Below, in pieces: positions 23,203 to 59,200 of a stretch of DNA of 64,000 nucleotides; position 1 is the first letter of the stretch, and each line of letters opens with the position of its first letter. Origin of the DNA: an uncultured virus (IMG/VR IMGVR_UViG_3300020047_007813) (Duplodnaviria; Heunggongvirae; Uroviricota; Caudoviricetes); the IMG/VR virus record IMGVR_UViG_3300020047_007813; one strand, written 5' to 3'. The notes under the pieces are model-generated. The model did no database searches, had not been told where the DNA came from, and saw only the letters and a list, made by a program, of their open reading frames with translations. The translations under genes were made by a program, and so were the position numbers.

Positions 23203-23436
23203 ATCTTTTTTCTACAATACCACATACACAAAAGCAGGTGCTGTTACCTCAATGATAAAACATGGGGTATCCTGCCTCTGTGTGTGGCATTTTCTTAAAT
23301 TGTTGTTTTTTGTGGAGTTTATCATTTTTGTGGGTAACAGCGATTGCAAACCAATAAATTAAATTTCATACTTCCTAATGTTTTTTTAATGAAAATTTAA
23401 CACCCCGCAAACCCAATGAAATCAAGCCTAAAAAAA

Positions 23437-23733
23437 GTTGAGGTGAATTCGAGGTGAATTTGAGGTAATTGTGAGGTAAGCGGTTTCAGTGGGTTTGAGG
23501 CATGTTTTGGCTAACTTCCGCATATACGTTGTGCGTTTTTTTTCTTCAAAAAAGTGCGTTTTCTCAATGATAGCAAGGCTTCGGCACATGTTGAGGTAAT
23601 CATTTTCCCATTACCTCCAATTCACCTCAACACCACTTTTTCTCTTTTTTACGTTAAACGCAATAACAACAAGGGTTACAGCTATTTTTAAATTACCTCC
23701 GATTTACCTCAAAATCACCTCCGATTTACTTCA
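23437..23733. repeat. inverted arrays of ~11-bp iterons (GAGGTRA core)
   Basis: 4 direct copies at 23437-23481, a mixed-orientation block at 23590-23631, 4 reverse copies at 23691-23733. Confidence 0.8.
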
Positions 23734-33436: not shown

Positions 33437-34327
33437 CTATTTATTCTCTATACCATACATTTTATTGAACGCTGCATCTTTGTCGCTGGTAGGGGCAGGA
33501 GTTTCTTCTTCGGTTGGCTTCACCGCATCCGTAGGCTTCACCTCCTCAAACGTGCCATCCTCTGTAGTGGTTTCGCCAAATACATCTGCGGGACCCTTAG
33601 GTGATGAGTTTTTAAACTCCTTCTCTTGCTCTGAAATAACCTCGGCAGCTAATGTATTAGTGCCCTTTGGCAACGACTTGTAATGCCTACGGATGACGGC
33701 CTTCTTTTGCATTTCACTCTCCCAATTGCTATATGGAGAGTATGAGCTGTTTGCTCCATCGCTCATAGCCTTTATTTTGTCCAGCTCCCATTTGGGGATA
33801 AACTCATAAACTTTTGTGTTGTCTTTAAGCACGGCACAGCTTAATGCACCTACAACTCTGCGCTGCTTGTTCTCCGCTTCCGACTCAGCATATTTTTTAA
33901 CGTGAACGGTATTCACCATGTCAAACACAAAATCCTCATCATCATACACTATACTAGCGGCCATATACTTTACATCGCCACCGTCAGTCAGTATTTTTGT
34001 CAACCCCATCCATGACGGGTCAAGAATACATTTGCCTTTTCTCGGAATAAGGTAAGCTAGTTTCATGGCAGGGTTAAGCGTAATCCCCATTCGTGCAACG
34101 TTGATGATGCAATTGATAATACTCGCAAATCCATCGGGCGTAGTAGCTATTTTTTGAAGGGATGTGCTGCCTTCAATTATTTGCGAGGCAAAACCTGCTT
34201 CAATTTTTGCTTTGTTCGGGTCTGCTATCATTGCAAACTTTTGCATCCCGGATGATACTGCTTGTTTCCATGCCGCCATAGGAGCTGCTGCATCCTGCGT
34301 TTTCGCGACTTCTTTCTGTGTTGCCAT
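33437..34327 (-). CDS. recT: RecT-family single-strand annealing protein
   Basis: GITLNP..LAYLIPR, SWMGL, SPYSNWESEMQKKAVIRR..K.LP. Confidence 0.85.
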   Translation of the reverse strand: MATQKEVAKTQDAAAPMAAWKQAVSSGMQKFAMIADPNKAKIEAGFASQIIEGSTSLQKIATTPDGFASIINCIINVARMGITLNPAMKLAYLIPRKGKCILDPSWMGLTKILTDGGDVKYMAASIVYDDEDFVFDMVNTVHVKKYAESEAENKQRRVVGALSCAVLKDNTKVYEFIPKWELDKIKAMSDGANSSYSPYSNWESEMQKKAVIRRHYKSLPKGTNTLAAEVISEQEKEFKNSSPKGPADVFGETTTEDGTFEEVKPTDAVKPTEEETPAPTSDKDAAFNKMYGIENK

Positions 34328-34419
34328 TTTCTGATAATTGTTTTAATTTGTTTATAAACTCTTGTTGTGTCATGGGCTTCTCGATTGCATCAAAGAACCG
34401 GTTAGCCTCAAAGTAATCG

Positions 34420-34767
34420 TTAAATATTATTGCCTCTAATAATAGCCTCGCTGTCGTCATGTGATATGATTTTAATTTCTCCGCTGTCCCACTCTTTTAT
34501 AAGGGCTATCAGCTCTGTAAATTTAGCTTTATCCTGCTTTCTTGCAATGTTAAACACTATACCAAACGCCTCTGACACAGAGGTGAGTTGCTCCTCATCA
34601 TCCATGCGCTTCTCTAATCTCCTTGCGAGCTTATTCCCTGCATTGGTAAAATTGTTGACCAACATGCTATCCATGCCTGAAAATCTGTTTTTGAACAGCC
34701 ATCCAAGTTTATCAACCTCATACATAGCGCATATAAAGGTTATAAGGTCAGAGTTGTTTTTGCTCAT
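34420..34767 (-). CDS. hypothetical protein
   Basis: 115 aa between the RecE-like and RecT genes. Confidence 0.5.
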   Translation of the reverse strand: MSKNNSDLITFICAMYEVDKLGWLFKNRFSGMDSMLVNNFTNAGNKLARRLEKRMDDEEQLTSVSEAFGIVFNIARKQDKAKFTELIALIKEWDSGEIKIISHDDSEAIIRGNNI

Positions 34768-35636
34768 GCAAATAAGTTTTTACGCCAAGCAGGTAGTTTA
34801 GCTGTTAGTATTCCATGACTTGCATCAGCAAGCGTGTCGTAGCTCCCCCATACATCTGTATCGGTACATTCTTTTACTTTACGCATGAAATGTTTGTACT
34901 GGTTGATGCCAATAAACAAGTCATCGTCAGTTAACCGGTAAACAGCAACGCCATAAGGAAATATATTCTCAATGGCTATATACAAGTAGTGATCCGTTTC
35001 GTAGCCCAGCACTTGACGTATAGCCTCCACTTGCATGCCTGCCTGCGTAAGATAGTCATACTTTACGATTGTTTTTCCAAACGCTTCAGGACTTGCGTCA
35101 TCCGTTGTTTTAAGGTCAATAACGGTGTTCCACTTGCCTCCATTATTGCGCCTAAAGTCGCACCTGGCTCTTGCTTTTAGTCCGGTGTCCTGGTCAACAT
35201 AGTAAATGGACTGCTCAGGCATACCGCTATCCAACAGCTTTGTTACAGCTTCGCATTTTAATGCTGAGTTTTTCATGGCAGATGCCGTAACATAGTCGTC
35301 AGCCGATACTATGTTGCGACCTTTGGCCAATAATATCATGCCGTTGTAGTTTTCCTTACCCTCTTTTGTGTTGCGCTTAATATTTAGACCTTCAGGTACA
35401 ACAAAGTTTTCTTTCTCAAATAAGTCAGGCTCCAATAGCAATGTATGAACCAATGTGCCTAATGATTGGGATGCTGTTGGTTTGCCGCTATCAGGGTCCA
35501 AGAAGTACTGACTGTAATGAAAAGGGGATGTGCCCATCTTCTTTAGTCGCGATGCAGAGATATAGTCTTTTCTCGAGTGATAGTCCTCGTTGCTCTCGCC
35601 ATCAAAAACTACCGGGAGTTTGATTATTTCTCTCAT
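34764..35636 (-). CDS. RecE/exonuclease VIII-like PD-(D/E)XK nuclease (DUF3799)
   Basis: NEDYH, ISASRLK, GTLVHTLLLEP, ARCD, DLKTT. Confidence 0.85.
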   Translation of the reverse strand: MREIIKLPVVFDGESNEDYHSRKDYISASRLKKMGTSPFHYSQYFLDPDSGKPTASQSLGTLVHTLLLEPDLFEKENFVVPEGLNIKRNTKEGKENYNGMILLAKGRNIVSADDYVTASAMKNSALKCEAVTKLLDSGMPEQSIYYVDQDTGLKARARCDFRRNNGGKWNTVIDLKTTDDASPEAFGKTIVKYDYLTQAGMQVEAIRQVLGYETDHYLYIAIENIFPYGVAVYRLTDDDLFIGINQYKHFMRKVKECTDTDVWGSYDTLADASHGILTAKLPAWRKNLFA

Positions 35637-35833
35637 TACACAGGCATGTTTAAGCCCTTTCGGACAGCGGCTATAATCAGTTCCTCTTTAGTAGGCTTGT
35701 CTTTATAGTCATAATCCGCCTGTAGGTTTATCAACGCTTTGTTGACCTCTTTAGGCAAAACTACCCCAACCCTGGGGCCTGTTTCTTCTACGCCAATGCG
35801 CAGGAATTTTTTAAAATCGTTTGTCGTACTCAT
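35636..35833 (-). CDS. small ribbon-helix-helix-like regulator
   Basis: 65 aa; RVGVVLPKEVNKAL...TKEELIIAAVRKGL. Confidence 0.45.
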   Translation of the reverse strand: MSTTNDFKKFLRIGVEETGPRVGVVLPKEVNKALINLQADYDYKDKPTKEELIIAAVRKGLNMPV

Positions 35834-35849
35834 ATTGTTTATTTTGGCG

Positions 35850-35895
35850 CAAATATACTATTTGTTTGTTATATGCAAAATGTTTTTTATGTTTG
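35850..35895. promoter_or_regulatory. divergent Bacteroidota-type promoters
   Basis: TATATTTG on minus (35850-35857) and TATGTTTG on plus (35888-35895); the plus promoter faces the cassette array. Confidence 0.55.
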
Positions 35896-35929
35896 CCCAA
35901 AAAATTAGTAATTCAATTTGCGTTTTGAC

Positions 35930-36181
35930 ATGAACTGGATAGAACAACGACCAAAAGAAGGGGACACCGTTAAGGTGTTTCTTTCTTTACCTGATGAAAT
36001 ATTGATTGGTGTTGCCTTGCGATACCATGATGGTAAAGTAATAATAGATAACGGGCTCCCGCTTGGGGAGCGTTCAGGAAGCGATTTTTATCGCGTTCCT
36101 GAATGTCCCCAAGCTGGTGTTGTGCGGCAGTCCGCCTTAGCGGCTGCCGTGCGACACCCGCGCAGCGGGAGCCCGTTGTAG
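35930..36181 (+). CDS. hypothetical ORF running into the first array site (possibly interrupted gene)
   Basis: MNWIEQRPKEGDTV...; from 36050 on it translates GC-rich hairpin DNA. Confidence 0.4.
   Translation: MNWIEQRPKEGDTVKVFLSLPDEILIGVALRYHDGKVIIDNGLPLGERSGSDFYRVPECPQAGVVRQSALAAAVRHPRSGSPL
36046..36181 (+). repeat. attC-like site 0 (GC-rich, branched)
   Basis: ATAAC-GGGCTCCCGCT...AGCGGGAGCCC-GTTGTAG enclosing two further hairpins. Confidence 0.6.
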
Positions 36182-36204
36182 TGCAAGACGCGAAGCGGAT
36201 TGCG

Positions 36205-36415
36205 CTACAACGTTACGAGGGTTGGCGAAGTTTTTATTTGCGGATTTGAAACACAAAACTAAATTATACAATGGAAAATAGACAGAAGATTTTAAGCGAT
36301 AAACACATACTTGGAAAGTTGAACGAGCATGGTTTGACGAATACTGTAATGGAGGCAATGACTGATTATGCACAGGAGCAAGCAAATAAAAATTTTGTCC
36401 AACCCTATGTTAGCA
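36205..36415 (+). repeat. attC-like site 1
   Basis: CTACAAC-gttacg-AGGGTTGGCGAAGTTTTTATTTGC...GCAAATAAAAATTTTGTCCAACCCT-at-GTTAGCA. Confidence 0.85.
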
Positions 36416-36567
36416 AATCGTTAGCCCCATATAGATGCCCAATATGCGGGGGCAATGGCTTGGTATCAGGTTCGTTTTATACATCGCTACTAGGATGTGG
36501 TGGCACAAGCGCTAATATAACTGAAAAGTGTAGAAGTTGCGATGGAAGTGGACTGTTATGGGGCTAA
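36271..36567 (+). CDS. cassette 1: DnaJ-type zinc-finger protein
   Basis: CPICGGNG...CRSCDGSG; starts inside the site 1 loop. Confidence 0.65.
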   Translation: MENRQKILSDKHILGKLNEHGLTNTVMEAMTDYAQEQANKNFVQPYVSKSLAPYRCPICGGNGLVSGSFYTSLLGCGGTSANITEKCRSCDGSGLLWG

Positions 36568-36571
36568 TGTT

Positions 36572-36702
36572 TGCTAACGAATGGTGCTTGCCGAAGGGCG
36601 GGTTTAGAATTACAAATGTTTAATTAAGTACTAATGTCAAATAGAATTACAGATGCTCAGGGCTTGCACGTTAGCCCGCCTTTTGGCAAACACGTGTTAA
36701 AT
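36572..36702 (+). repeat. attC-like site 2
   Basis: TGCTAAC-gaatg-GTGCTTGCCGAAGGGCGGGTT...AGCCCGCCTTTTGGCAAACAC-gt-GTTAAAT. Confidence 0.85.
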
Positions 36703-37083
36703 GATGGTTTTATTATAGACTTTTTTGAACTTATGTTTTTAGCCGAATCAGTTATTCCAGAAAGACCAATAGCACGTTCAATGTGTTTTGATGATTTTTC
36801 AGAAAGGCATTATCATAAAATGAATGATAATCAAAGAAAACAATTTTTTGAACACGTACAAAAGTGTCACGGTTTCAATTTAGAAAATGAGCAATGCAGA
36901 CACTTTTTTGCAAGATTTAACCCTAAAAATCAATACTTAGTTTCTTGTTTTTATAATGGGAAAGCCGAAGCTATTGTATGTTATATGTTTGATGAAGAAT
37001 ATAGGACTGAAAAAAACAGATTTGTCAATCGTGAATACATTAAAAGCGTTGTCAGGGTGTGGGATTCTCAAACTATCATTTAA
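36634..37083 (+). CDS. cassette 2: hypothetical protein (paralogue of cassette 3 ORF)
   Basis: IDFFELMFLAESVIPERPIARSM; its stop TAA is the TAAC core of site 3. Confidence 0.7.
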   Translation: MSNRITDAQGLHVSPPFGKHVLNDGFIIDFFELMFLAESVIPERPIARSMCFDDFSERHYHKMNDNQRKQFFEHVQKCHGFNLENEQCRHFFARFNPKNQYLVSCFYNGKAEAIVCYMFDEEYRTEKNRFVNREYIKSVVRVWDSQTII

Positions 37084-37154
37084 CGTTTTCGGGGTAACAG
37101 AAGGCGGCTATACAGTCGCAAACGTCAGCCGCTTTTTGTTACCCTGTGTTATAA
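37078..37154 (+). repeat. attC-like site 3 (short loop)
   Basis: ATTTAAC-gttttc-GGGGTAACAGAAGGCGGCT...AGCCGCTTTTTGTTACCCT-gt-GTTATAA. Confidence 0.85.
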
Positions 37155-37214
37155 GATGCCGCTTCCAGTAAGCATATTAGTAGTAGAATATTTTAATTAT
37201 TAAATTTTAAAGCG

Positions 37215-37592
37215 ATGGCAGAAATAAAAATAGATTTTTTTGAATTAGCATTTCTTGCTGAAACATGTATCCCTCCAACACCAATAGCGAGGTCAATGTT
37301 TTGGGATAGGCTTATAAACGAAATATACCACCAACTCAATGACAATGAAAGGAAAAGGTTATTTGAATGGATGAAACGAAATGATAGGTTTAAATTAGAA
37401 AATGAAGATTGTCAATGGTTCTATGCCAGATACAATCCAAATAACCAATATGAGGTAAGTTGCTTCTATAAGGGAAGTCCACAAGTTGTAAAAGCATTTA
37501 TGAAAGATGAATTGTATAGAACAAATAAGACAACACATATTTCTCCTGAATACATAAAATTTGCAACTAAAATTAAAATATCAAACAAATGA
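37215..37592 (+). CDS. cassette 3 ORF a: hypothetical protein (paralogue of cassette 2)
   Basis: IDFFELAFLAETCIPPTPIARSM, ARYNPNNQY. Confidence 0.7.
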   Translation: MAEIKIDFFELAFLAETCIPPTPIARSMFWDRLINEIYHQLNDNERKRLFEWMKRNDRFKLENEDCQWFYARYNPNNQYEVSCFYKGSPQVVKAFMKDELYRTNKTTHISPEYIKFATKIKISNK

Positions 37593-37843
37593 GGCACACA
37601 TCAGGCATTACAAAAATGAAAATGCTTATTAAGAAAAATAAGCGTGATGTTGAAAATGGAAGTAATGAAATTTACGAGTTCTTAATTAAATGGTGTGATA
37701 GGTTGATAAAAGAAGAAAAAGAATTTAAGAAAAAAGAGTGTTCTCATGACTTTGTTGAAACCGGATTGAGTGGGGAATATTTTTGTTATAAATGCAATAT
37801 CTATATGTCTGATTATTTTAAAAAGCGGGCAGTAAAAATTTAA
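37589..37843 (+). CDS. cassette 3 ORF b: small zinc-ribbon protein
   Basis: CSHDF...CYKC; ATGA-coupled to ORF a. Confidence 0.55.
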   Translation: MRHTSGITKMKMLIKKNKRDVENGSNEIYEFLIKWCDRLIKEEKEFKKKECSHDFVETGLSGEYFCYKCNIYMSDYFKKRAVKI

Positions 37844-37894
37844 TAATTAAAAAATAATGGTTAGTAGGATACATGATTGGAAACGTGCGGTTTC

Positions 37895-38019
37895 TTATAA
37901 CGTATCGGGTATTGGCGAAGTTGCCGAACCGAAAGTTTAATTGAAAAACAAAAGTTGAAATTATGGACGAAAGTTTAATTGAAAAACAGAACGGCAATTT
38001 TGCCAATACCTTGTTAGTG
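37895..38019 (+). repeat. attC-like site 4
   Basis: TTATAAC-gtatcg-GGTATTGGCGAAGTTGCCG...CGGCAATTTTGCCAATACC-tt-GTTAGTG. Confidence 0.85.
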
Positions 38020-38694
38020 GCAGTGCATTCTAAGCCGAAATGTTTGGATTTGTTCTGCTGTTCTGGCGGTGCAGGAGTTGGTTATAATCTTGCTGGGTTT
38101 GATGTAATTGGCGTGGATATAGAGCCACAACCTGAATACCCTTTTACATTCATACAGGGCGATGCACTTCAATATGTAAAGGAACACGGACACGAATTTG
38201 ATTTTATACACGCAAGCCCGCCCTGCCAACATTTTACCAAATACAATAATTGCCGTAAGGATTTGAAAGAACGCTATGAAGATTTGATTGAACCTACAAG
38301 GCAGGCGTTGATTGAAAGCGGAAAGCCTTATGTAATTGAAAATGTTGTTGGAGCTCCTTTACATAACCCGATTACATTATGTGGCTCTATGTTTGGACTT
38401 GATGTGCGTAGGCATAGATTATTTGAAAGCAACTTTGAAATACCACAACCCAAATGCGACCACAAAGTATGGGAACCAAATAGATTTCCAGGGGGCAGGT
38501 CAAGAGAGCGTGGACACGCCAGAGTATTATGCAGGGGAACAGTTGAAATTGGGAGGTGGAATATTCCGATTAAAACCCAGCAAGATGCAATGGGTATTCA
38601 ATGGATAACGGAATTACGAAAGTTGAGCGAAAGCATCCCGCCAGCTTTTACAAGATATATCGGTGAGCAGTGGGTGTCGCTGCATTGCCACTAA
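37963..38694 (+). CDS. cassette 4: C5 cytosine DNA methyltransferase
   Basis: LDLFCCSGG, ASPPCQ, IENV, RRHRLFE; its stop TAA is the core of site 5. Confidence 0.85.
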   Translation: MDESLIEKQNGNFANTLLVAVHSKPKCLDLFCCSGGAGVGYNLAGFDVIGVDIEPQPEYPFTFIQGDALQYVKEHGHEFDFIHASPPCQHFTKYNNCRKDLKERYEDLIEPTRQALIESGKPYVIENVVGAPLHNPITLCGSMFGLDVRRHRLFESNFEIPQPKCDHKVWEPNRFPGGRSRERGHARVLCRGTVEIGRWNIPIKTQQDAMGIQWITELRKLSESIPPAFTRYIGEQWVSLHCH

Positions 38695-38823
38695 CGTTCC
38701 CTCGCTTTGTGTCAGTGGCGGATTAAAAAATACTGACTTTTCGATTAATAACTAAACATACAAAAATGCAAGAAACATTAAATTTAGACCAAACCCCGCC
38801 ATTGCACAAAACGAGTGTTAGTG
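38689..38823 (+). repeat. attC-like site 5
   Basis: CACTAAC-gttcc-CTCGCTTTGTGTCAGTGGCGG...CCGCCATTGCACAAAACGAG-t-GTTAGTG. Confidence 0.85.
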
Positions 38824-39311
38824 GCAGTCCTTTATTCGATTACATTAAATGTCCCCTTCATAGATATACTTTTAAAGTAAAAAATATTCGTGAATGGACT
38901 GAAAATAATTGCGAGGGAAGAACTTTAAACCTATTTGCAGGAAGAACAAAACTAAATATTGACGAATTAAGAAATGACCTTGACGAAGAAGCATTGGCAG
39001 ATTATAGAATGGATGCAGTTGAATTTTTGAGGACTTGGAAAGGAGAAAAATTTGATACGGTATTACTTGACCCTCCGTATGCTTTTCGTAAAAGTATGGA
39101 AATGTACAAAGGGATAAAATGCAGTCCCTTTAAGCAAATGAAAGACGAAGTTGTAAATGTTTTAAAGCCAAATGGGAAAGTAATAACTTTTGGTTATCAT
39201 TCAAATACAATGGGAGCAAATAGAGGTTTTAAAGTTGAGAAGATTGCTTTATTTTCTCACGGTGGAGCAATTCACGATACAATAGCTTCTGTTGAACGGT
39301 GGTGTCTTTAG
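38766..39311 (+). CDS. cassette 5: small amino (N6A/N4C) DNA methyltransferase
   Basis: LNLFAG and LLDPPY motifs. Confidence 0.75.
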   Translation: MQETLNLDQTPPLHKTSVSGSPLFDYIKCPLHRYTFKVKNIREWTENNCEGRTLNLFAGRTKLNIDELRNDLDEEALADYRMDAVEFLRTWKGEKFDTVLLDPPYAFRKSMEMYKGIKCSPFKQMKDEVVNVLKPNGKVITFGYHSNTMGANRGFKVEKIALFSHGGAIHDTIASVERWCL

Positions 39312-39375
39312 GATTGCCACTAACTACTATATGTATTTTAAACCATAAAACTTAACAATAACAACTATTACAGAC
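39310..39375 (+). other. attI-like terminal site
   Basis: AGGATTGCCACTAAC core, complementary to the cassette 5 GTT core, followed by AT-rich DNA with no hairpin and then the recombinase ATG. Confidence 0.55.
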
Positions 39376-40212
39376 ATGAACATCGGAAACTACATCAAAC
39401 TTTATTCCGAAGATTTAAGGCTTAAAAACTATGCTGAATCTTCAATTGAAAACTATTGCTCACAAGTAGCTTTATTTTTATCTGACCATGAAAAAGTTGC
39501 TACTAAACCGAGTGAAATTTCGGAACGCCAAATAAAAGAGTGGCTACTTAAAGCAAATACTATTAATAGCCGGAAGCATAGATTATCAGCCGTTAAGTTA
39601 TTTTATAAACTCACAGGACACCAACCAATGAAGTTTAGATATATTGAATATCCAAAGGCGGATAAGAAGTTACCAATAGTACTTTCTGTTGATGAAATTC
39701 AACGAATGTTTAATGTGTGCGAAAACAAAAAGCATAAGGTGATTCTTGCATTGCTTTACTCTTGCTCGTTAAGAGTTAGCGAATTAATAAACCTACGATG
39801 GAAGGATATTGACCGGAGCCGAATGATTATAAATATTATCCAGGCAAAAGGAAATAAAGATCGTCAAGTTGGATTAAACGACAAACTGATCCAATTGCTA
39901 ACGGATTATTGGAATGAGTATAAATCAAAAGAGTATGTTTTGAATGGGCAATCATCAATTCAATATTCGGAAAGAAGTGTTGGTGAAGTTATGAAACAAT
40001 TAGCCGCAAAATCCGGCATTGAAAATAAAAGAATTTACACGCATTTATTGCGACACACATCAGCTACGCACATGGTTGAAAATGGTGTTGATATTGCTTT
40101 AATACAAAAGTTGTTAGGTCATTCATCAGCTAAGACCACTGCTATCTACACTCACATCAGCCACAATCATATTTCAAAAATCAATAGTCCTTTAAATTCT
40201 ATTCAATTATGA
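39376..40212 (+). CDS. tyrosine recombinase (XerD/IntI-like, N-terminal SAM-like domain)
   Basis: SLRVSE, AKGNKDR, HLLRH, LLGH, TTAIY catalytic motifs. Confidence 0.9.
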   Translation: MNIGNYIKLYSEDLRLKNYAESSIENYCSQVALFLSDHEKVATKPSEISERQIKEWLLKANTINSRKHRLSAVKLFYKLTGHQPMKFRYIEYPKADKKLPIVLSVDEIQRMFNVCENKKHKVILALLYSCSLRVSELINLRWKDIDRSRMIINIIQAKGNKDRQVGLNDKLIQLLTDYWNEYKSKEYVLNGQSSIQYSERSVGEVMKQLAAKSGIENKRIYTHLLRHTSATHMVENGVDIALIQKLLGHSSAKTTAIYTHISHNHISKINSPLNSIQL

Positions 40213-40514
40213 AAAATTTAATCATTGCCTTATGCTTTATGGCAACATCTTTAAAAGCACAAACCGTTTTAATTAACGGTCAACAGTACCAGCAAAATGA
40301 TACGGCTGTGATAGTCACCACCTATGCTGACGTAACGGTTACTTCACCTGCGTCCGTTGATGCCGTTAGAATTTACTATGTTGGTGCAAATTCGTACTAT
40401 GCGCCAAACTTCACCGAGCAGTTTATGGTAACACAAAAGCCTAAGTTGTTCCGGGTGTATTGGCGAATCAATGGGGTTTGGTCTGACCCTTATAGAGTAT
40501 ACTTAAAAAGATAA
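40209..40514 (+). CDS. secreted hypothetical protein
   Basis: Signal peptide MKNLIIALCFMATSLKA|Q. Confidence 0.55.
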   Translation: MKNLIIALCFMATSLKAQTVLINGQQYQQNDTAVIVTTYADVTVTSPASVDAVRIYYVGANSYYAPNFTEQFMVTQKPKLFRVYWRINGVWSDPYRVYLKR

Positions 40515-40517
40515 GAT

Positions 40518-40955
40518 TTAGCGTGACTTATTAAAAAGATGGCCGTTATCCTTGTAAAACTTGATGATATTTTCGTCAATCTTCTGGAACCGATCATCTG
40601 TCTTTTGAAACCTATCTGCTATCATCTTGTTGAACTCGGATTGATTGTCTATTATTCGTTTCATGTCAGTATTTTGACGCTCCCATTGCTCCTCAGCTCT
40701 TGCCATGAATCCATTTTGCGTAGTGCTGATTTCTATCAATGAGCTGGTCACGCCTTGATGCGTTTCCTCGATTGCAGTGACTTTCATTTTTAGTGATGCG
40801 ATTTCATTAGTGTTGCTTTCAATCTTGTTGTCCATCCCCTTTAGCGTGGATATAATAAGGTAATAAATTCCTGCGCCCGATATAATTAATCCGGCTACTA
40901 TTCCAATATATTTGATTATTTCGTCAATTGTAAATATTACTTGCTGTTCGTGCAT
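40518..40955 (-). CDS. membrane-anchored coiled-coil protein (lysis-module candidate)
   Basis: N-terminal TM segment followed by a coiled coil. Confidence 0.5.
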   Translation of the reverse strand: MHEQQVIFTIDEIIKYIGIVAGLIISGAGIYYLIISTLKGMDNKIESNTNEIASLKMKVTAIEETHQGVTSSLIEISTTQNGFMARAEEQWERQNTDMKRIIDNQSEFNKMIADRFQKTDDRFQKIDENIIKFYKDNGHLFNKSR

Positions 40956-41470
40956 AAAAGCGGCTTTATTTCCTTAATTGTTTTTACTATTTGTTCGCCT
41001 TCGTTTGGCGTTAATTCGTGATCATGACTAAAGGCAACAACCAGGCAACCTTCGCTAATGCTTTTATTTATCCGGTACTTAAATGATGTTTTAACATTTA
41101 TTGTGTTGTGAAGCCTTTTTATATCATCCTTGCTATTCTTGTCTACTGTTGTAAAACCTTTTTGTTCTAATTCTAACAGCATAGGTAAGCATGGCGTACT
41201 GTTTATATCCTTAAATGACTTTTGAATCTCAGGTGTGCCAATACTTACGCTCTCATATAGCATTGTCGCCCCATCGTCAATATAGTTTATAATCGCAACC
41301 CTGTTAGCGCCTATATCTTCACGAAGTGAATCCAGGTGATCTTTAATGGACACTTTAGCTTTCAGCACCTTTACACTTGACTTCTTGCTTTTTCTTTGGG
41401 CCAAATAAATGTTTAGGTTATGCCCTAAAAAAGCAATCACCATACCCACCATAACGCTAATTAAATTCAT
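40937..41470 (-). CDS. putative T4 T-like holin (TM plus GAF-like domain)
   Basis: Likely start MNLISV at 41470 (ATGA overlap); TM segment, then GANRVAII...YESV. Confidence 0.45.
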   Translation of the reverse strand: MNLISVMVGMVIAFLGHNLNIYLAQRKSKKSSVKVLKAKVSIKDHLDSLREDIGANRVAIINYIDDGATMLYESVSIGTPEIQKSFKDINSTPCLPMLLELEQKGFTTVDKNSKDDIKRLHNTINVKTSFKYRINKSISEGCLVVAFSHDHELTPNEGEQIVKTIKEIKPLLCTNSK

Positions 41471-41652
41471 ACTTTTTTCTTTATGTAATTTTTCGTATTG
41501 CTTGAAAACCGGCATACAATAATGCCCATGCCAGTTATAATTCCACCCACTCCAATTGCATAATCTTTCTGTATTACAGAGATGACACCCAGCGCAATGG
41601 TATTTACGCCACCCCAAAATATTTTTGATTTAAAGACTGACTTCCGTATCAT
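41467..41652 (-). CDS. small two-TM holin-like protein
   Basis: FKSKIFW, two hydrophobic segments, basic C-terminus. Confidence 0.5.
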   Translation of the reverse strand: MIRKSVFKSKIFWGGVNTIALGVISVIQKDYAIGVGGIITGMGIIVCRFSSNTKNYIKKKV

Positions 41653-53244: not shown

Positions 53245-56200
53245 TTATTTTTTAATTGGATATAGTTCTTCTGATCGGTAAATTCTTTTTGATAACGCAT
53301 TGCTGTCAAGCTGATTTAAAATACCACCCATCATTACCGAGTGCAAGTGGTCAATAAATGCCGCAGTAACCTTTACACCGGTAGTGTTATATATAGCCTT
53401 GCTAATGTCCTCTGCTCCTTGTGTACCATACTTTAGCTTAACCTCCCAAGGCATAATGTTGTCATTGCCTGCGTAATAAGCCTTAGCAAGCCTCTCATTA
53501 GTCAATGGATAGCCATTGTAAGAGTTAATGCCTCGTAATTCCTCATATCCAAACTTCAATAAAGGATTGGTATTTGCTGCAATAGCATTGCCGAGCTTCA
53601 TTGACTTTTGAGCCAGGTCATCCCCCTCTTTATAATTAAGATTAAGATTGATAGGCGTGGCATTACTCATAGCCTGTACAGCCATGTTTTTAAATGCTTC
53701 GGGATTGTTCTTTTTAAGATAGTCAATGTAGTTAACCACCATTGTATTCGCTGTTGCAGGAAGCCCTCTCAATGGGAGCTTTACATAGTCATCATACTTT
53801 TCTCCATCGTAGTAAAACTGCGAGCCGGTTTTAAACAGTATGTTATTGTTTTTATCAGGATTATTAACGGTGTCAAATGACTTCTCGTCATCATCATTCC
53901 ACATGTTTTTTATAGCTGCATATAGCATAGGCAATAATGCATATACGCCTATTTTTAATATACCCATAGCCAATCCTGATGCAACTTTGTTTTTTCTTAT
54001 GCCCAGTGTGCCACCTTCAGTATTAGTAATTGTCCTCCAATCTGAAAACTCGCCTTTCACCCTTGCGCTGAAAAACTGAAACAGCCCTGACATGTACTTT
54101 GCCCAATTACCTGCCGCTGGAAAGTTGGGTGAGGCCGAACGATTTAAAGTATCAAAAGCAATTTCATCAAGTGCGGCTACTAACTCATCTCCGCTTTTTC
54201 CACTTAGCGCATTCAAGCGTAACACCGTTTCTTTTGCCCACTTCGTAAAGCCAACTCTATCAACGCCCTCTACGTCCATACCTCTAGTGTAAGTGTAAAT
54301 CTTAGGCATTTGTTCTAACGACACCCCTAGCCTTGGTACTGCAGTAAGTATGTATTTCAACATTGACATCGCCTGTTGTGGGGTAGTCATGTTTATTTTC
54401 TCCGTTATTTTATGATTTGGATCATTAAATATATCGTCAAATGCACCGCGAGTAAATGACTTTGATTTCATCCACTCCTCGTATTGCTTGGTCCTGATTC
54501 CGGTAAAGTTTGCTAATAAGCCACTACCCAAAGCCTCAATCATTTGTGGTAATAGTATAACTGCATTAATTGTTTTCTCGGCTATATCCTTGCCGGCTAT
54601 TGCACCATACTTGCTCATGGTCAAGCTTCTGAAATTGTCAATGACACTGTTGGCAAACAAAAATGACGGGCTGTAGGTAATGATACCAGCCCTCGCTACC
54701 TTATTCGCCAGGTTTATCAGCTTCATTACTCCATTCATCTCAAAGTCATTGATGCCGCGTAACGCTTTTGCTGCCTCCTCATTAACGGCTATAAACTTAG
54801 TCTTGCCGTCAATCTTATATTGGATAGGCGCAAATCCTTCCGGTGCCTTTATTTGGTCAATGTTTTTTGGGAACATGAACGGTTGCCCATTAGCATCATA
54901 GCGCAACTCAAAGCCCTCTACTTCTTTAAAGAAATGATTATCCTCGTCCACCTCTCGTAACTTATGGATGCGCTCCATCGTTTTGTTGCGCTCTCCCAAT
55001 ATCCTTGACTTGTAAATCATTTCAGCCATGCGGTCAAAGATGTTGTTTACCGCAAAGCCAGGATCAGCTAATTTAATACTCTCATTGGTGTATTGCTCCT
55101 CCGTTAAAGTGCCTGCGCTATACATGCCGTCAAGAAGCTCCTGTGCACCTCGGTAAAACTCATCCTGAGTAATTATCTTGTGGTCAACGCCTGCTTGTAG
55201 TTTATTCAAGTCGTTTAACGTGAAGTCAGCGGGCTTGCTACTGATACCTTTTATTTTGTGCAGTACAGTTGACTGTGCTTTGCCGTCTGCTTTTTTAGTA
55301 AGATTGGTAAAAATATTTTGCACCACGCTAAATGGAGCATAGAAATCTTTACTATCCATTACTGCATCCAGTGTTTCTTGCGAAATCAAACCGCCCTCAT
55401 ATAGCTCCAACATTATGCCGTCAGCATGCTTTTGGAATAACTCGCCTCTGTCAACTACCTTTTGATATTGTGATGGGCTTAACCGGTCTTGGATATTCTC
55501 TAATTGAGCAAGCGCCTGTTGAATGGTTACGTTACCGGTAGCTTTGATGTTGTCCTGATCCTTTAACCGGTCAATTACTCGTCTTGCAGCTATGTACTCA
55601 TGCAATGACTGCAGCTCTGTGTTAGACAATCCTTTTAATACCTCATCCACAAAGTCCTCCACTGCAAGTTTTGCCGGGCCTGTATAGCTTTGCTCAAATA
55701 CGCGGCCTAATGGCACCCGGCTCATGCGTTGTGCATTAGGGTATTTTTTAAGTACGTCATCCTCTAACCTGGTTACATACACAAATGGGTTATCAATGTG
55801 CTTGCTTAAATTCAAAAAGAAATCCTTAACCTTACCTGGGAGCGTTGATGGCTTGTCCTTTGGGTTAAGCATTTGGTTAAACATTTCCTGCGCTACTTTC
55901 TTTTCAGCATCGGATATAGGCTGATTGGGTAATGCAAAGGATGGTGTTTTGCCTATACGCAACATAGTGGCTCGCATACGTGCCTTAAATGTTTTTTCCT
56001 CTGCTAACGACATTACAGGACCGCCCGCTGCAGCAAGCTCATTCTTAGCATGTGCAAGCCCGTCCTGAATAGCTTTCTCAATCTCGGGCTTAGTGCGTGT
56101 ACCCGCTAATATAGCTTTCTTAGTAAAGTCCATTGTGCCGTTCCATATTGCAGGAAACAAATTGAATGGAGGCATGATGCCAAACAGCTTGTTCTTAATC

Positions 56201-59200
56201 TTTGCGTCATCAAATGCTTTGGCTATACGCTCTTTAGTGTATTTTTCCTTGGCCTTGTTCCATGCATCAACAATAAAGTCATGCGCCTTGTCACCAATAA
56301 CCTTTATGAAGTCAGATAATTTATTCATGCCTTTTTTAAGGTATAGGTAAGCAAGTTTGGTATATGCTGCAGCAAGTTTAACCCGCTTCTTGGTTACGAT
56401 ATTATTCATGCCCAATTCCCCCGCATCGCTATTGTCACCCTCTAAATCATCAATGTCTTTTTTTGCATCATTAATTTCGTCATCAATAGATTTGGCCTCG
56501 GCATCGTATCTGTAAAACTTAGAGCCTTCTTCGGCAGTATCTAAATCGTCATAAGATGTTATTTTTTGAACATCCCCGTTTTCAGAAATAGCATAAATCT
56601 CGTCATCCCAGCCTTCGTTAATTAAATCCATGACTTCGTTAACGCTTCTAATTCTTGTTCCGTCAGCTTCAATAACATCACTTGTTGGTAACGCTTTAGC
56701 TGATTCCGCTGCCATCTCAGATAATGTTTGGTCAATCTTCTTTTGAGTGGCGAGAGCTTCCTCATATTCTTTTGCTCTTGGAAATTCATCGGGCAATTCA
56801 GATAGGTACTTTTCCTTATCTGCTATATCTTTCTCATAAGCGCTTTTTTCGCGTTCATTTGCCAATAAATCGTCTGCAATACCTCTTATTTGACGGTGTG
56901 CAAATGATCCTAAATAAACGGGGTCATCACTTTTTATAGCGGCTTGCACACTTTTATTATTTGGGTTTACAACATATATGCTTGGAGTAAATTCATACCA
57001 AACGGCTTTGCCATTCGACTCAAATGTATAATCTGCCTGCATAACAATATCATACCCTGCAATATGTCCGACAATCTTATGTCCAGATGGCGCAAAACTT
57101 GTGCTTTCTATTGACTTTGTGCTTAAAATAGGGTGCGCCTTAATCATTTCTTTGATATAGTCGCTTTTTACCTGAAGCAATGCTTCTCCTGCAAGTTTGC
57201 GTTCTGTAAACTCCACTCCACCAATTACCTCTTTGAAATTCCACTCTCCTGTTTTTTCATTTTTGGTAGAGTTGCTTTCAAATAGTTTTATGTCTTCCTG
57301 ATTTCTTTTAATACGACTTTCAGTATAAGATAAACCTTGTTCAGACCGGGCTATTTTGTCTTGGACTGTATATTTTTCTTGTGAAAAGCCTTTTTCTGCC
57401 GCATCAAGCTCTTTTACTTTTTTGTCAATCTTAGCTTTTTCAAGCAGTACTGGATTACCGGATATTACTGCGGTCATGGTAGCAAACGAAACTCCGTTTT
57501 CTTCATCACCATCTCCTTCTGATATTTCCCTGACCTTGCCATCTGTTGTTTTCGCCTGGTCTATAAACTGCTGCTTGGTATCAAGTAATTGATATTTGTA
57601 AGCATCAAGCGTGTACTCTGTTGCATAGTAATAAACAGGTAGCTGATTATCGTAAAACTCCTCTGTTATTAAATTGCCTTGTCTTATACCACGTCCGTTA
57701 CGCTGCTCCATGTCCGAAGGTCGCCAAGGAACATCAATATGATGCATGGCAACTATCCTGTTTTGGATGTTTACCCCGGTGCCCAACTTAGATGTTGATC
57801 CGATTATCACCCTTACCTTACCTGACCTTGCATCATTAAACAGTTGTTCTTTTTTTGCAGCCGTATTATAATCATGTATAAATGCTATTTCATTTGCAGG
57901 AATACCACGTTTTACCAACTTGTCTTTTATAGACTGATAAATATTAAAGGTAGCTTCATTCGATTCTGTAATGGCATCGTCAATCTGCTCCTCGCTATAT
58001 TCAAGAATGGTAGCTATTCTTTTCCTAACATCTTTAATTGGTGGATATCTTGGCGTTTCTGAAAATGCAGCAGAGCCAAAAATGGTTTCCAAAGTATCGT
58101 TGTCAATACCTCTACTCTCCAACAAGTCAAACAGGTTTATAGATGGGTTAGCCGACTTAGGCGTACCAATGTCGCTAAACACCAATTGGATGCCCTTGTG
58201 CTTATCGCTTTCTTTGTAATGCTCCAGTATAGTATCTGCGGCTACCCCTAACTTACCAACCTCGCTATCTGCATAAGTTGGGTCAACTAATCGCATATCA
58301 ATAGCCATTTTGCTTGCTAAGTTTGTTGCAAGTAGCATGTAAGCCTTTTTTTGCTTGTCGGTCAATACACGACCAATGCGACTGCCATCTTTAGTTTTGG
58401 CAAACTCTTGTATTCTTTTTCCAAAACGTCTTTGCTCTTTTGTTGGGCTTACGTTAACAAGCAAGCCATTTACGCCTTCTGAATCGGTGTATGGTGTGCT
58501 TACATTTTCGTAATCAAAATTGCCGTTTTTTGCAGGTTGAATATCTTTGCCAACACTGCTTAAACTAAGCCAATGCTCATTTTTGCTCAATCCTTTCATG
58601 CCGCCTATAACCCGGTACTTATTGCCATCAATAAATATAGTTTCGTTTTTGGCAATAGGCTTTGATGTTTTTACTCTGAATGTTTTTTTAAACTCGGGGC
58701 GTGGCAGTTTTAAGTTTTTCTCATTACGAACATCTGCAATTTCTCTATACATGGTTGCCATTTCAGGAACATTCATAAAGTTGCGCATCCTTGTCTTTGG
58801 TTTCAATGAATTGGTTACACCAAATTCTATTTCAGAGCCTACGCTTGCAAATGTATTCGCCCAATTATCAAAAGAGTTTATTCCTAACTCTTTCATTTTA
58901 TTAGGACGCAAATATTTAAACAACAAATACATTTCTACCATTGTATTGCTGATAGGCGTTCCTGATGCAAATACAGTTCCTTTATCAGCACTATAAAACT
59001 TTTGCAATGTCCTTGCAGCAAATAATAAATTAAAGGCTTTTGTTGATCCTTTGGGGTCGCCTAATCCAGCTACGCCACGTTGGATAGTATTATAAGTAAG
59101 GTTTTTAAACTGTTGGCTTTCGTCAACAAACATGAAGTCAATCCCCATTTCCTCAAACGACTTTAGGCTATGGTCTTTTTTCATTAACGCTGCATTTTGC

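Follow-up and report, generated by a model that had tools for sequence, protein, structure and literature searches.

A probable phage-borne, integron-like gene-capture platform in which hairpin-bounded cassettes adjoin a Xer-like recombinase gene

Classical integrons are arrays of mostly single-gene cassettes, ~300-1200 nt in length and mostly of unknown function. Each cassette carries an imperfect hairpin site, attC, with conserved AAC and GTT cores; the core that follows a site agrees with the one preceding the next site, and the fold is strand-asymmetric. The docking site adjoins the gene for a tyrosine recombinase, and the I2 insertion of the integron integrases has been held to be their key innovation. 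All of these traits except the insertion recur in the phage array described here, its carrier being a phage. Xer enzymes can also act on folded DNA. In the integration of CTXphi, the host XerCD enzymes integrate a folded single strand whose hairpin is imperfectly paired at its centre. The phage array may be likened to this system in having a Xer-type enzyme without the IntI insertion and a one-strand hairpin with an imperfectly paired central region, but CTXphi relies on host enzymes and on the chromosomal dif site, mobilizes its genome in full, and forms no array of cassettes. Small gene modules that reassort among replicons between short recombination or stem-loop elements are likewise found with pdif, the double-stranded XerC/XerD sites of Acinetobacter plasmids that alternate in orientation, and with the promoter-early stem-loops (PeSL) of T4-type phages, which are thought to act via homologous recombination. 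Unlike the phage array, neither carries a circle-opening footprint.

Clusters of attC sites are already known from phages. In Qi et al. 2023 (PMC9892861), clusters lacking an integrase (CALINs) and carrying methyltransferase cassettes are described from virulent phages; Polaribacter phage P12002L is among the CALINs listed, and a site from it was recombined experimentally by IntI1 between the G and the TT of GTT. Our site scan placed nine sites of the phage array's class on one strand of P12002L. The similarity lies in the attC-like sites and the methyltransferase cassettes. In that paper, however, the sites are treated as integron components without an integrase, whereas the phage array has both a conserved docking site and a dedicated non-IntI recombinase. 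The term "Xer" occurs nowhere in PMC9892861, and no description of the full system, including a non-IntI recombinase of its own, was found in the literature searched.

The window, the entire 64,000-nt stretch of viral DNA that was analyzed (IMG/VR record IMGVR_UViG_3300020047_007813), probably contains a phage-borne, integron-like gene-capture platform at positions 36049-40212. Its features are listed in Table 1. The preliminary description had named five hairpin sites and a variant at 36046, and all are present, as six sites on the + strand between 36049 and 38832. They share one plan: TAAC, a G and ~4 nt, an imperfect stem of 20-28 bp, a loop of 4-140 nt, a T, and GTTA. The general form is that of attC, namely an imperfect hairpin with paired R and L boxes in which AAC and GTT are kept, but the dimensions differ. 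A stem scan of both strands of the window returned the six sites of the array and none elsewhere; a looser scan yielded one unrelated hairpin at 23399. When the + strand was folded as single-stranded DNA the proposed hairpin was adopted, with z-scores of -7.9, -4.9, -4.1, and -3.1 for sites 0, 3, 4, and 5, respectively. The z-score of -1.5 against shuffled sequences for site 2 is not significant alone, and for site 5 the - strand gives a better fold than the + strand. An Rfam search gave chance-level matches only.

Table 1. Coordinates of the array, its surroundings, and the recombinase gene within the window
Feature	Position	Strand	Description
Candidate Bacteroidota-type promoter	35865..35895	+	Pattern match: TTTG, 19 nt, TATGTTTG; divergent intergenic region upstream of array
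Site 0 (variant)	36049..36133	+	AAC 36050, GTT 36119; 5-nt spacer, 28-bp stem, 4-nt loop, T, GTTG box
Unit 0	36052..36210	+	GC-rich, ORF-less; short internal GTTG box, 13 nt, its complement
Site 1	36197..36423	+	AAC 36209-36211, arms 36218-36241 / 36382-36406, 140-nt loop, GTTA 36409; AAC-side box included
Cassette 1	36211..36577	+	ORF 36271-36567, 98 aa, no family; start inside site 1 loop
Site 2	36564..36710	+	AAC 36576-36578, 21-bp stem, 68-nt loop, GTTA 36696
Cassette 2	36578..37083	+	ORF 36634-37083, 149 aa; start in loop; first 27 residues encoded by site
Site 3	37070..37162	+	Compact; AAC 37082-37084, 20-bp stem, 17-nt loop, GTTA 37148
Cassette 3	37084..37900	+	ORFs 37215-37592 (125 aa) and 37589-37843 (84 aa)
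Site 4	37887..38027	+	AAC 37899-37901, 20-bp stem with G.T pairs, 65-nt loop, GTTA 38013
Cassette 4	37901..38694	+	ORF 37963-38694, C5 cytosine DNA methyltransferase; start in loop
Site 5	38681..38831	+	AAC 38693-38695, gapped 21-bp stem, 74-nt loop, GTTA 38817
Cassette 5	38695..39323	+	ORF 38766-39311, DNA methyltransferase with DPPY motif; adjoins docking site
Docking site (attI-like)	39310..39335	+	Last cassette's AAC-side box, TAAC 39321-39324, then conserved TACTATATGTA 39325-39335
Xer-like tyrosine recombinase, 278 aa	39376..40212	+	R133, K158, H223, R226, H249, Y258 all present

The array is composed of six units, five gene cassettes and one without an ORF. At the start of each unit is its hairpin site, and at its end is a box able to pair with the one after that hairpin. 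This relationship was measured over 15 nt, with the GTT-side box of each site set against the AAC-side box downstream, which belongs to the next site or, for the last, to the docking site. The six sites give 11, 10, 14, 13, 14, and 14 Watson-Crick pairs, plus one or two G.T pairs each, and the pairing claimed between the GTT core of a site and the AAC core of its successor is thus borne out at 10-14 of 15 positions. The corresponding values within a site are 7, 4, 6, 8, 6, and 12. The two cores of one site had been said to be mostly non-complementary beyond AAC/GTT, which is true for five of the six; the value of 12 at site 5 arises because the last two cassettes carry a near-identical box. 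Outside of the array, only 2 of 303 GTTA motifs in the window have a TAAC partner that pairs at 12 or more of 15 positions at a distance of 150-1500 nt downstream. An R' of one site that is complementary to the R'' of the next is the footprint expected of circular cassettes opened in the core, and the unit boundaries first proposed (36211-36577 and onwards) are exact if the cut falls at AA^C.

A search with the recombinase provided 45 non-redundant loci for comparison with the window. In these loci plus the window, 92 sites lie upstream of the recombinase gene (189 kb), three lie downstream (279 kb), and two are on the other strand. The chain footprint extends to these loci. Agreement at 7 or more of 11 positions beyond the core was seen in 52 of 67 pairs of consecutive sites, versus 319 of 8958 among all other pairs and 4 of 95 when the boxes of one site were compared with each other. 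In a MAFFT alignment of 48 sites, 83% of the L-stem cells are paired, a value that falls to 37-48% when the partners are slid, and 19 of 20 L-stem pairs have changed on both sides. The core is paired at 98.7%, and a conserved G.U is present in 38 of the 48 sites. The stems of the 92 sites, 59 of which are ungapped, place a G opposite a T 105 times and a T opposite a G 10 times, and the arms are more stable on the + strand in 84 of 92. The asymmetry of the phage sites appears to come from G.T pairs, in contrast to the extrahelical bases of classical attC. The loops share sequence, and in many sites the start codon lies within the loop.

Cassettes are reassorted in nature. Comparison of related contigs, as the preliminary description had proposed, revealed that relatives of the recombinase carry differing cassettes and that one cassette may occupy different array positions. 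One is found at position 1 in loci L001 and L048 and at position 2 in L017, and ends at AAC. A second is located at position 1 in L014 and position 3 in L017, and a third at position 1 in L051 and position 2 in L048. Assembled contigs from four metagenome studies of wastewater and aquatic samples contain cassettes 3, 4, and 5 of the window, each singly and in other contexts, with breaks at 37081, 37903, 38692-38696, and 39324. The contigs with cassette 3 span 37081-37903 and 37128-37912, whereas one with cassette 4 is identical across 37981-38696. In run X3, the sequence beyond 39324, after cassette 5, is a further hairpin and not the docking site. A contig of 186 nt spans 36049-36230, in the region of unit 0, and the site 4 hairpin is very abundant in four runs. 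Breakpoints had been predicted at the AAC cores. Single-cassette differences do fall there, in the metagenome contigs and also between the cultured isolates mumin6-1 and mumin6-4 described below, but a second class lies at the 3' arm/GTT side and would not be expected if AAC were the only cut. Indeed, between L014 and L017 the cassette body is 95% identical and the hairpins differ, whereas between L014 and L020 the hairpin is 99% identical and the flanks differ. Loose contig ends were observed at 38006, 38820, and 38832.

The docking site ends 40 nt before the recombinase gene, and TAAC plus TACTATATGTA, or a near variant, is positioned ~50 nt before the recombinase start codon in most of the 45 loci. 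For 13 pairs of loci with upstream DNA in both, including the window versus L026 and the window versus L032, nucleotide homology starts 2-7 nt before the C of the docking-site AAC. The attI-like site claimed beside the recombinase is thereby confirmed as a conserved element at which homology between relatives begins, and its location corresponds to that of attI, the cassette entry site beside the integrase gene. On sequence grounds alone, the crossover would be placed within or next to the shared TAAC.

The recombinase displays the R-K-H-R-H-Y set and the two-domain fold, with no insertion, of the Xer enzymes. Its best NCBIfam matches are, in order, XerA (199 bits, cut-off 220), XerD (174, cut-off 330), XerC (168, cut-off 335), and the integron integrase model TIGR02249 (166, cut-off 265, in two stretches); no curated Xer family cut-off is reached. 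The best PDB matches are the XerC-like 4a8e and XerA 5hxy. In contrast to the integron integrases, the IntI-specific insertion (I2 helix region) is absent, as judged from an alignment to VchIntIA (2a3v) in which residues 173-201 span VchIntIA 175-246, and thus ~43 residues are missing there.

In the mechanism that we propose, the two boxes and two arms of a free circular cassette would form one long imperfect hairpin from the + strand. Its R stem would measure ~15 bp and have a G.T pair at position 11, and its L stem would measure ~20 bp and include two G.T pairs; a 4-nt bulge between the stems and the loop would complete the structure. Such a site would differ from classical attC in its ~15-bp, cassette-specific R boxes and in its single 4-nt bulge, confined to the 5' side. 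Recombination of the folded strand with the docking site ahead of the recombinase gene would take place inside the TAAC core, such that new cassettes would enter beside that gene, and the product would presumably be resolved by replication. The likely catalyst is the adjacent enzyme, a Xer-type tyrosine recombinase without the insertion by which classical integron integrases read attC hairpins.

The cassette ORFs and the recombinase gene are all on the + strand, and the genes are read toward the docking site. In integrons, by contrast, intI is divergent and the cassettes are read away from attI under Pc. Cassette genes and recombinase are probably read from one putative upstream promoter, recognized by its match to what we take to be the Bacteroidota-type consensus. 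Four of the five gene cassettes have their start codon inside the hairpin loop, and therefore the 3' arm and box are translated; frequent start codons in the loops are a further difference from classical integrons. The cargo consists mainly of DNA-modification genes and should protect the phage against host restriction. The ORF of cassette 4 matches PF00145 (weakly) and phrog_363 (5e-41), and that of cassette 5 matches phrog_11619 (8e-42). The 125-aa protein of cassette 3 is a paralogue, at 51% identity, of the cassette 2 protein. Genes for RecT and an exonuclease lie just upstream of the array. The carrier had been called a crAss-like Bacteroidota phage. The crAss-like assignment is unsupported, but a Bacteroidota host is plausible because all matches of the large terminase are to phages of Flavobacteriia (~26% identity).

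It is unlikely, although of the alternatives it fares best, that the cassettes are mobile but the neighboring recombinase is a lysogeny integrase or a Xer-type resolvase, with an enzyme of the host or of a co-infecting phage moving the cassettes in trans. Pointing in this direction is a second sample, collected by site, of 80 viral loci (not de-duplicated). In 49 of the 80, at least 1.5 kb of further DNA after the array end contains no related recombinase, and these arrays end at other terminal motifs beside ordinary phage genes. Among five such records a PF00589 search matched one, and neither of the two that are at least 90% complete. The cultured Flavobacterium phage isolates mumin6-1 and mumin6-4, which are 99.9% identical, differ by one 506-nt cassette with TAAC at both bounds, and PF00589 has no match in either genome. 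Either some turnover events therefore proceed without an adjacent recombinase, or the enzyme works in trans; slippage is also a possible origin of this indel because its ends share 7 nt. In a paper on related cultured phages (PMC8776804), the integrase is taken as a sign of temperate life. Nevertheless, the type of terminus tracks the recombinase perfectly in this sample, with the TATATGTA type in 10 of 10 arrays that have the enzyme and in 0 of the 49 that do not. The docking site keeps its distance from the gene in most loci, and its left side varies between relatives exactly from TAAC, which would not be expected of a phage attP, since both of its sides move together with the phage. Among 185,579 species genomes, only one short contig carried a close relative of the recombinase. 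Each comparative test put forward in the preliminary description upholds its core view of mobile cassettes docked at a site beside the recombinase gene, although most arrays found by site have no recombinase nearby.

Less probable still is that the hairpins are regulatory stem-loops akin to PeSL, serving as promoters or translation starts, and that homologous recombination between similar hairpins, aided by RecT and the exonuclease, shuffles the genes. The start codons and shared sequence of the loops would fit, as would the breakpoints within hairpins or at their 3' edge and the proximity of the two recombination genes, and since the sense strand holds all of the G.T pairs, folding would be expected of the mRNA as well. 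Homologous recombination, however, explains neither the complementarity of the post-hairpin box to a unit-end box hundreds of nucleotides away nor the joining of a cassette to a docking site that lacks a hairpin and shares TAAC alone with it, and because stem sequences vary while pairing is kept, the homology available to it is limited. That the array is an old relic no longer moving in the window phage is highly improbable, for although no close relative of the phage backbone that could show turnover was found and unit 0 looks degenerate, the R-box pairs are near-perfect (13-14 of 15 for four of six), the recombinase keeps all catalytic residues, and single cassettes in recent metagenomes differ from those of the window at 0 to 3 positions over 716-785 nt.

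If the array is an integron-like capture platform, its wider implications can be put forward only tentatively. Bacteroidota phages may run their own gene capture, in which a plain Xer-type recombinase lacking the I2 insertion recombines folded single-stranded hairpins, reading G.T wobbles and a fixed bulge rather than flipped-out bases, and the hairpin doubles as a translation-start module. Such a system might have invented the integron principle independently, or it might be a living relative of the integron ancestor. Phages could then be a main reservoir, and perhaps the workshop, of cassettes, with recombinase-less arrays serviced in trans during co-infection. The phage would keep small accessory genes, two DNA methyltransferases included, as swappable hairpin-bounded cassettes in an integron-like manner but with a simpler enzyme.

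As can be seen from the table, the array of hairpin sites is followed by a docking site resembling attI and by a gene for a tyrosine recombinase. The five sites and one variant site of the preliminary description were all recovered, by a reading of positions 35500-41500 and by a scan for AAC, spacer, stem, loop, stem, spacer and GTT. Their common form is TAAC, a G with ~4 nt, an imperfect stem of 20-28 bp, a loop, a T and GTTA. A stricter scan of both strands of the 64-kb window returned no sites beyond these six. The loose scan alone picked up an unrelated 19-bp hairpin at 23399-23504, which is flanked by AAC and GTT without the AACG/TGTT form.

Features of the array region and metagenome contigs matching single units (X1, X3 and X9 are metagenome runs)
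Feature	Position	Strand	Remarks
Site 0 (variant)	AAC 36050 / GTT 36119	+	loop 4 nt; GTTG in place of GTTA
Site 1	AAC 36209 / GTT 36409	+	loop 140 nt
Site 2	AAC 36576 / GTT 36696	+	loop 68 nt
Site 3	AAC 37082 / GTT 37148	+	loop 17 nt
Site 4	AAC 37899 / GTT 38013	+	loop 65 nt
Site 5	AAC 38693 / GTT 38817	+	loop 74 nt
98-aa ORF	36271-36567	+	no family
149-aa ORF (cassette 2)	36634-37083	+	51% identical paralogue of the 37215-37592 product, neighbouring unit
125-aa ORF (cassette 3)	37215-37592	+	51% identical paralogue of the 36634-37083 product
84-aa ORF	37589-37843	+	
C5 DNA methyltransferase	37963-38694	+	
DPPY methyltransferase	38766-39311	+	
Docking site	39321-39335	+	TAAC then TACTATATGTA
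Tyrosine recombinase	39376-40212	+	
101-aa ORF	40209-40514	+	signal-peptide-like N-terminus; no family match
Cassette-3 unit contig, X9	37081-37903		
Cassette-3 unit contig, X3	37128-37912		3 differences
Cassette-4 contig, X1	37981-38696		identical
Cassette-5 contig, X3	38795-39324		then another hairpin, not the docking site

The claim that the GTT box of each site, which begins at GTT, is complementary to the AAC box of the next, which ends at AAC, was borne out, with 11, 10, 14, 13, 14 and 14 Watson-Crick pairs of 15 nt and 1-2 additional G.T pairs in each duplex. With the AAC boxes of their own sites, the GTT boxes of the six sites form 7, 4, 6, 8, 6 and 12 pairs, the last value arising because cassettes 4 and 5 have nearly identical boxes. 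Outside the array, 2 of 303 GTTA occurrences in the window have a partner at 12/15 or better. Folding of the + strand as single-stranded DNA yielded the proposed structure, in which paired TAAC and GTTA lead via a 4-nt bulge into an unbroken stem. For five sites, the z-scores on this strand are -7.9, -1.5, -4.9, -4.1 and -3.1, and that of -1.5, for the site at 36576, is not significant alone. For site 5 the - strand fold is slightly better than that of the + strand. In an Rfam scan of 35000-41000 with E up to 10, all matches were to snoRNAs and miRNAs at chance level, and a tRNA search of the window found none.

The array's outermost unit, 36052-36210, is GC-rich (~60%), lacks an ORF and carries a 28-bp hairpin. 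It contains two short elements consisting of a box, 13 nt and a complementary box, one of them with GCGAAGC, and it looks like an empty or degenerate cassette. One metagenome contig, of 186 nt, covers just this element.

In most loci retrieved for comparison (prefixed L), the final cassette has TAAC at its end and TACTATATGTA, or a close variant, next to it, ~50 nt 5' of the recombinase start codon. Whether related contigs carry different cassettes before the same recombinase had been raised as a check, and indeed they do. In 13 locus pairs, both members of which have upstream DNA, nucleotide homology begins 2-7 nt before the C of the docking AAC and extends into the recombinase gene, and the cassettes upstream are unrelated. 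The window paired with L026 and with L032 is among these cases, and three contigs (L011, L012 and L053) start exactly at this point.

The recombinase contains the catalytic residues R133, K158, H223, R226, H249 and Y258. Against the NCBIfam models it scored 199 bits for XerA (cut-off 220), 174 for XerD (cut-off 330), 168 for XerC (cut-off 335) and 166 for the integron integrase (cut-off 265). In the integron integrases, hairpin single-strand recombination is thought to have been gained via one inserted helix (PMC7790495). Residues 173-201 of the recombinase align across residues 175-246 of the VchIntIA chain (2a3v), and the IntI-specific segment is therefore absent. Among 185,579 species genomes, a close relative was found on one contig only, of 2.2 kb (L182). 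This contig belongs to a MAG labelled Legionella sp. and probably derives from a phage and was misbinned.

A recombinase-first sample of 56 loci from viral and metagenome contigs, which together with the window amounts to 645 kb, contained 122 sites co-oriented with the recombinase gene and 6 in the opposite orientation. After removal of 11 duplicate loci, 92 sites remained in the 189 kb upstream of the recombinase and 3 in the 279 kb downstream of it, and the other strand had 2. The footprint of a chain, defined as 7 or more of 11 positions in common outside the core, was observed in 52/67 consecutive site pairs versus 319/8958 other pairs and 4/95 own-site pairs. The low-scoring consecutive pairs are mostly far apart, probably with an undetected site between them. 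In a MAFFT alignment of 48 sites, from which three near-duplicates were excluded, the L stem is 83% paired with changes on both sides in 19 of 20 pairs, and the core is 98.7% paired; the controls gave 49% for the own-site box extension and 37-48% for slid partners. Mismatches are one-sided: a 5'-arm G faces a 3'-arm T in 105 cases, a 5'-arm T faces a 3'-arm G in 10, and the + strand arms are the more stable in 84 of the 92 sites. The 5' spacer measures 5 nt in 57/92 sites and the 3' spacer 1 nt in 53/92, with median values of 20 bp for the stem and 522 nt for the unit. Loops are 60-79 nt long in 50 of the 92 sites and shorter than 40 nt in 31. The cargo of the relatives is mostly small proteins without a Pfam match. 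The 15 of 74 with a match comprise 10 DNA methyltransferases, PAPS-reductase-like, YopX, Ro60/TROVE and dCMP deaminase proteins, and one weak match.

Individual cassettes occupy different positions in different arrays. A methyltransferase cassette adjoins the docking site in L001 and L048 and is second in L017, with homology running from AAC to AAC; another is at position 1 in L014 and position 3 in L017. Of the relatives with upstream DNA, L051 has the closest recombinase (90% identity over 111 residues), and its last cassette recurs at position 2 in L048. Other arrays also encode homologues of the window's cassette proteins, at 40-50% (L089) and 84% (L164) identity. The expectation that breakpoints fall at the AAC cores stood in part: shared cassettes start and end at AAC, and a second class of breakpoints lies at the 3' arm/GTT side. 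Thus L014 and L017 share a cassette body, 95% identical from the end of the 3' arm onward, with differing hairpins, and L014 and L020 share a hairpin, 99% identical, with unrelated flanks. The stretches concerned are L014 7003-7125 and L017 5033-5153 for the former and L014 4818-4934 and L020 5686-5802 for the latter, and both breaks are at the 3' arm/TGTT. Reassortment of hairpins is separate from that of cassette bodies. We infer that the second class reflects homologous exchange between similar hairpins, superposed on site-specific insertion.

Assembled contigs from four runs of four wastewater and aquatic studies were compared with 35800-40300; such contigs reveal the contexts of cassettes and cannot reveal circles. 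The run-search matches share just 13-27% of the sampled words of the stretch, and therefore any statement on habitat is confined to these four runs. No contig in these runs spans 35800-40300; single units are present. Loose ends cluster at 37912, 38691-38692, 38820, 38832 and 39324; some loose ends lie directly after GTTA or after the box and belong with the second breakpoint class. The summed depth of hairpin 4 in the four runs is very high, as expected because this site type is common to many cassettes. Joints of 36623 to 37977/37981 were rejected as deletions, given their 20-nt sides and similar hairpins.

The region's ORFs are all on the + strand, and the 101-aa ORF, which overlaps the recombinase stop by 4 nt, is the last of this block. 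In four of the five gene units the ATG is located inside the hairpin loop, and the frame continues through the 3' arm and GTTA box. The cassette-2 protein has 27 additional N-terminal residues encoded by the site, and its cassette-3 paralogue starts after the compact hairpin; the pair thus shows that the hairpin-encoded leader is an add-on. The window is that of a phage. Among its products are a large terminase, portal, virion proteins, helicases, RecT, an exonuclease and a DarB-like protein. The label "crAss-like" is not supported: the terminase, at ~26% identity, matches exclusively phages of Flavobacteriia (85 records). Adjoining the array upstream and transcribed divergently are a RecT-like annealing protein and an exonuclease VIII-like nuclease (33437-35636, - strand), which might supply single-stranded DNA or bring about homologous exchange between hairpins. 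No relatives of this exonuclease were found among the viral contigs, which offered no array on the same backbone for comparison, and of the window's flank genes only one recurs in the first 21 loci. An ORF of 3576 aa at 53245-63975 (- strand) matches DarB-like antirestriction and DNA methyltransferase families (phrog_10089, phrog_11801), and is a second, very large counter-restriction investment of the same phage.

As a site-first control, a degenerate site pattern was matched to viral contigs, giving at least 125 stretches; 80 among the matches listed have flanks, duplicates being kept. In ten of these 80 listed matches, a same-strand related recombinase follows the last site by no more than 3.5 kb, and the terminus is of the TATATGTA type; 17 end before a call is possible, 4 gave no site in the scan and 49 have no related recombinase. 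Among the matches listed, the 49 arrays without a recombinase terminate in other motifs beside ordinary phage genes, and 78 ORFs downstream of them include no recombinase. PF00589 was found in one of five such records searched among the matches listed; the two records with a completeness of 90% or more both lacked it. Among the matches listed, orphan arrays are therefore common. Alternative motifs recur after the last TAAC (L057, L076, L085, L101, L075, L124 and others), one type being TAC.CGCTAAC then TATAAAAGTATTAC and another containing GTATAGGCGCAG. Their recurrence suggests further types of docking site.

Cultured phages carry such arrays as well. Hairpin 4 has matches in 17 Flavobacterium phage records, 5' of methyltransferase genes. 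In phages mumin6-1 (L183) and mumin6-4 (L184), the sites, at least 10 in each, are all on one strand. The two phages are 99.9% identical, and what separates them is one 506-nt unit, with TAAC at both ends and 7 nt common at the junction. PF00589 is absent from both genomes despite this difference, and turnover can therefore occur where no tyrosine recombinase is resident. Of the four differences in 4.6 kb between the two phages, three are adjacent bases (L183 3945-3947, L184 4451-4453) directly 3' of one site's GTTA, where the pairing with the cassette end box is broken in mumin6-1; the change is possibly a trace left by exchange on the GTT side. The main text of PMC7077304 links the 15 variably present methyltransferases of Muminvirus to plating efficiency and gives no mechanism for the variation; the words "hairpin", "cassette" and "integrase" are absent from it. 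Polaribacter phage P12002L (L185, NC_028924.1; 31313-40948, - strand) has nine sites of the window's class on one strand, in two groups, among methyltransferase, Mom-like and HNH genes, and its annotation includes no integrase. Phage attC clusters are already published (Qi 2023). In that paper P12002L is listed as an attC cluster without an integrase, one site of which was recombined by IntI1 (PMC9892861). Full-text literature searches turned up no account of a phage array equipped with a docking site and a non-IntI recombinase of its own. In the Polaribacter Freya isolates (44.0-48.9 kb), there is a distant recombinase relative (29.5% identity) with shifting coordinates.

In the proposed mechanism, the + strand of a circular cassette would fold into one long hairpin composed of the R stem, bulge, L stem and loop. 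Inside TAAC, the recombinase would exchange a single strand with the docking site; replication would then finish the insertion, the one-strand exchange and the replication step being analogous to those of integrons and CTXphi. The array would grow at the recombinase end, which would make the DPPY methyltransferase cassette its most recent acquisition. A promoter-like match of Bacteroidota type at 35865-35895 is the probable start of transcription, and the loops would provide A-rich leaders and start codons. Double-stranded dif-like half-sites were rejected, given spacers that are unequal on the two sides (~5 nt against ~1 nt), and because a double-strand site does not need a complementary partner. 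A shufflon-like inversion switch was rejected given ORFs all on one strand and differing unit contents, and an IS200/IS605-like single-strand transposon given no HUH transposase in the region.

If the proposed mechanism is true, a cassette platform run by an enzyme without the inserted helix would constitute a second route to the same chemistry, open to testing because both the enzyme and the sites are small. The swapping of anti-restriction methyltransferases by virulent and temperate flavobacterial phages would likewise be accounted for. The site model provides a means of finding accessory and counter-defence genes in phage metagenomes.
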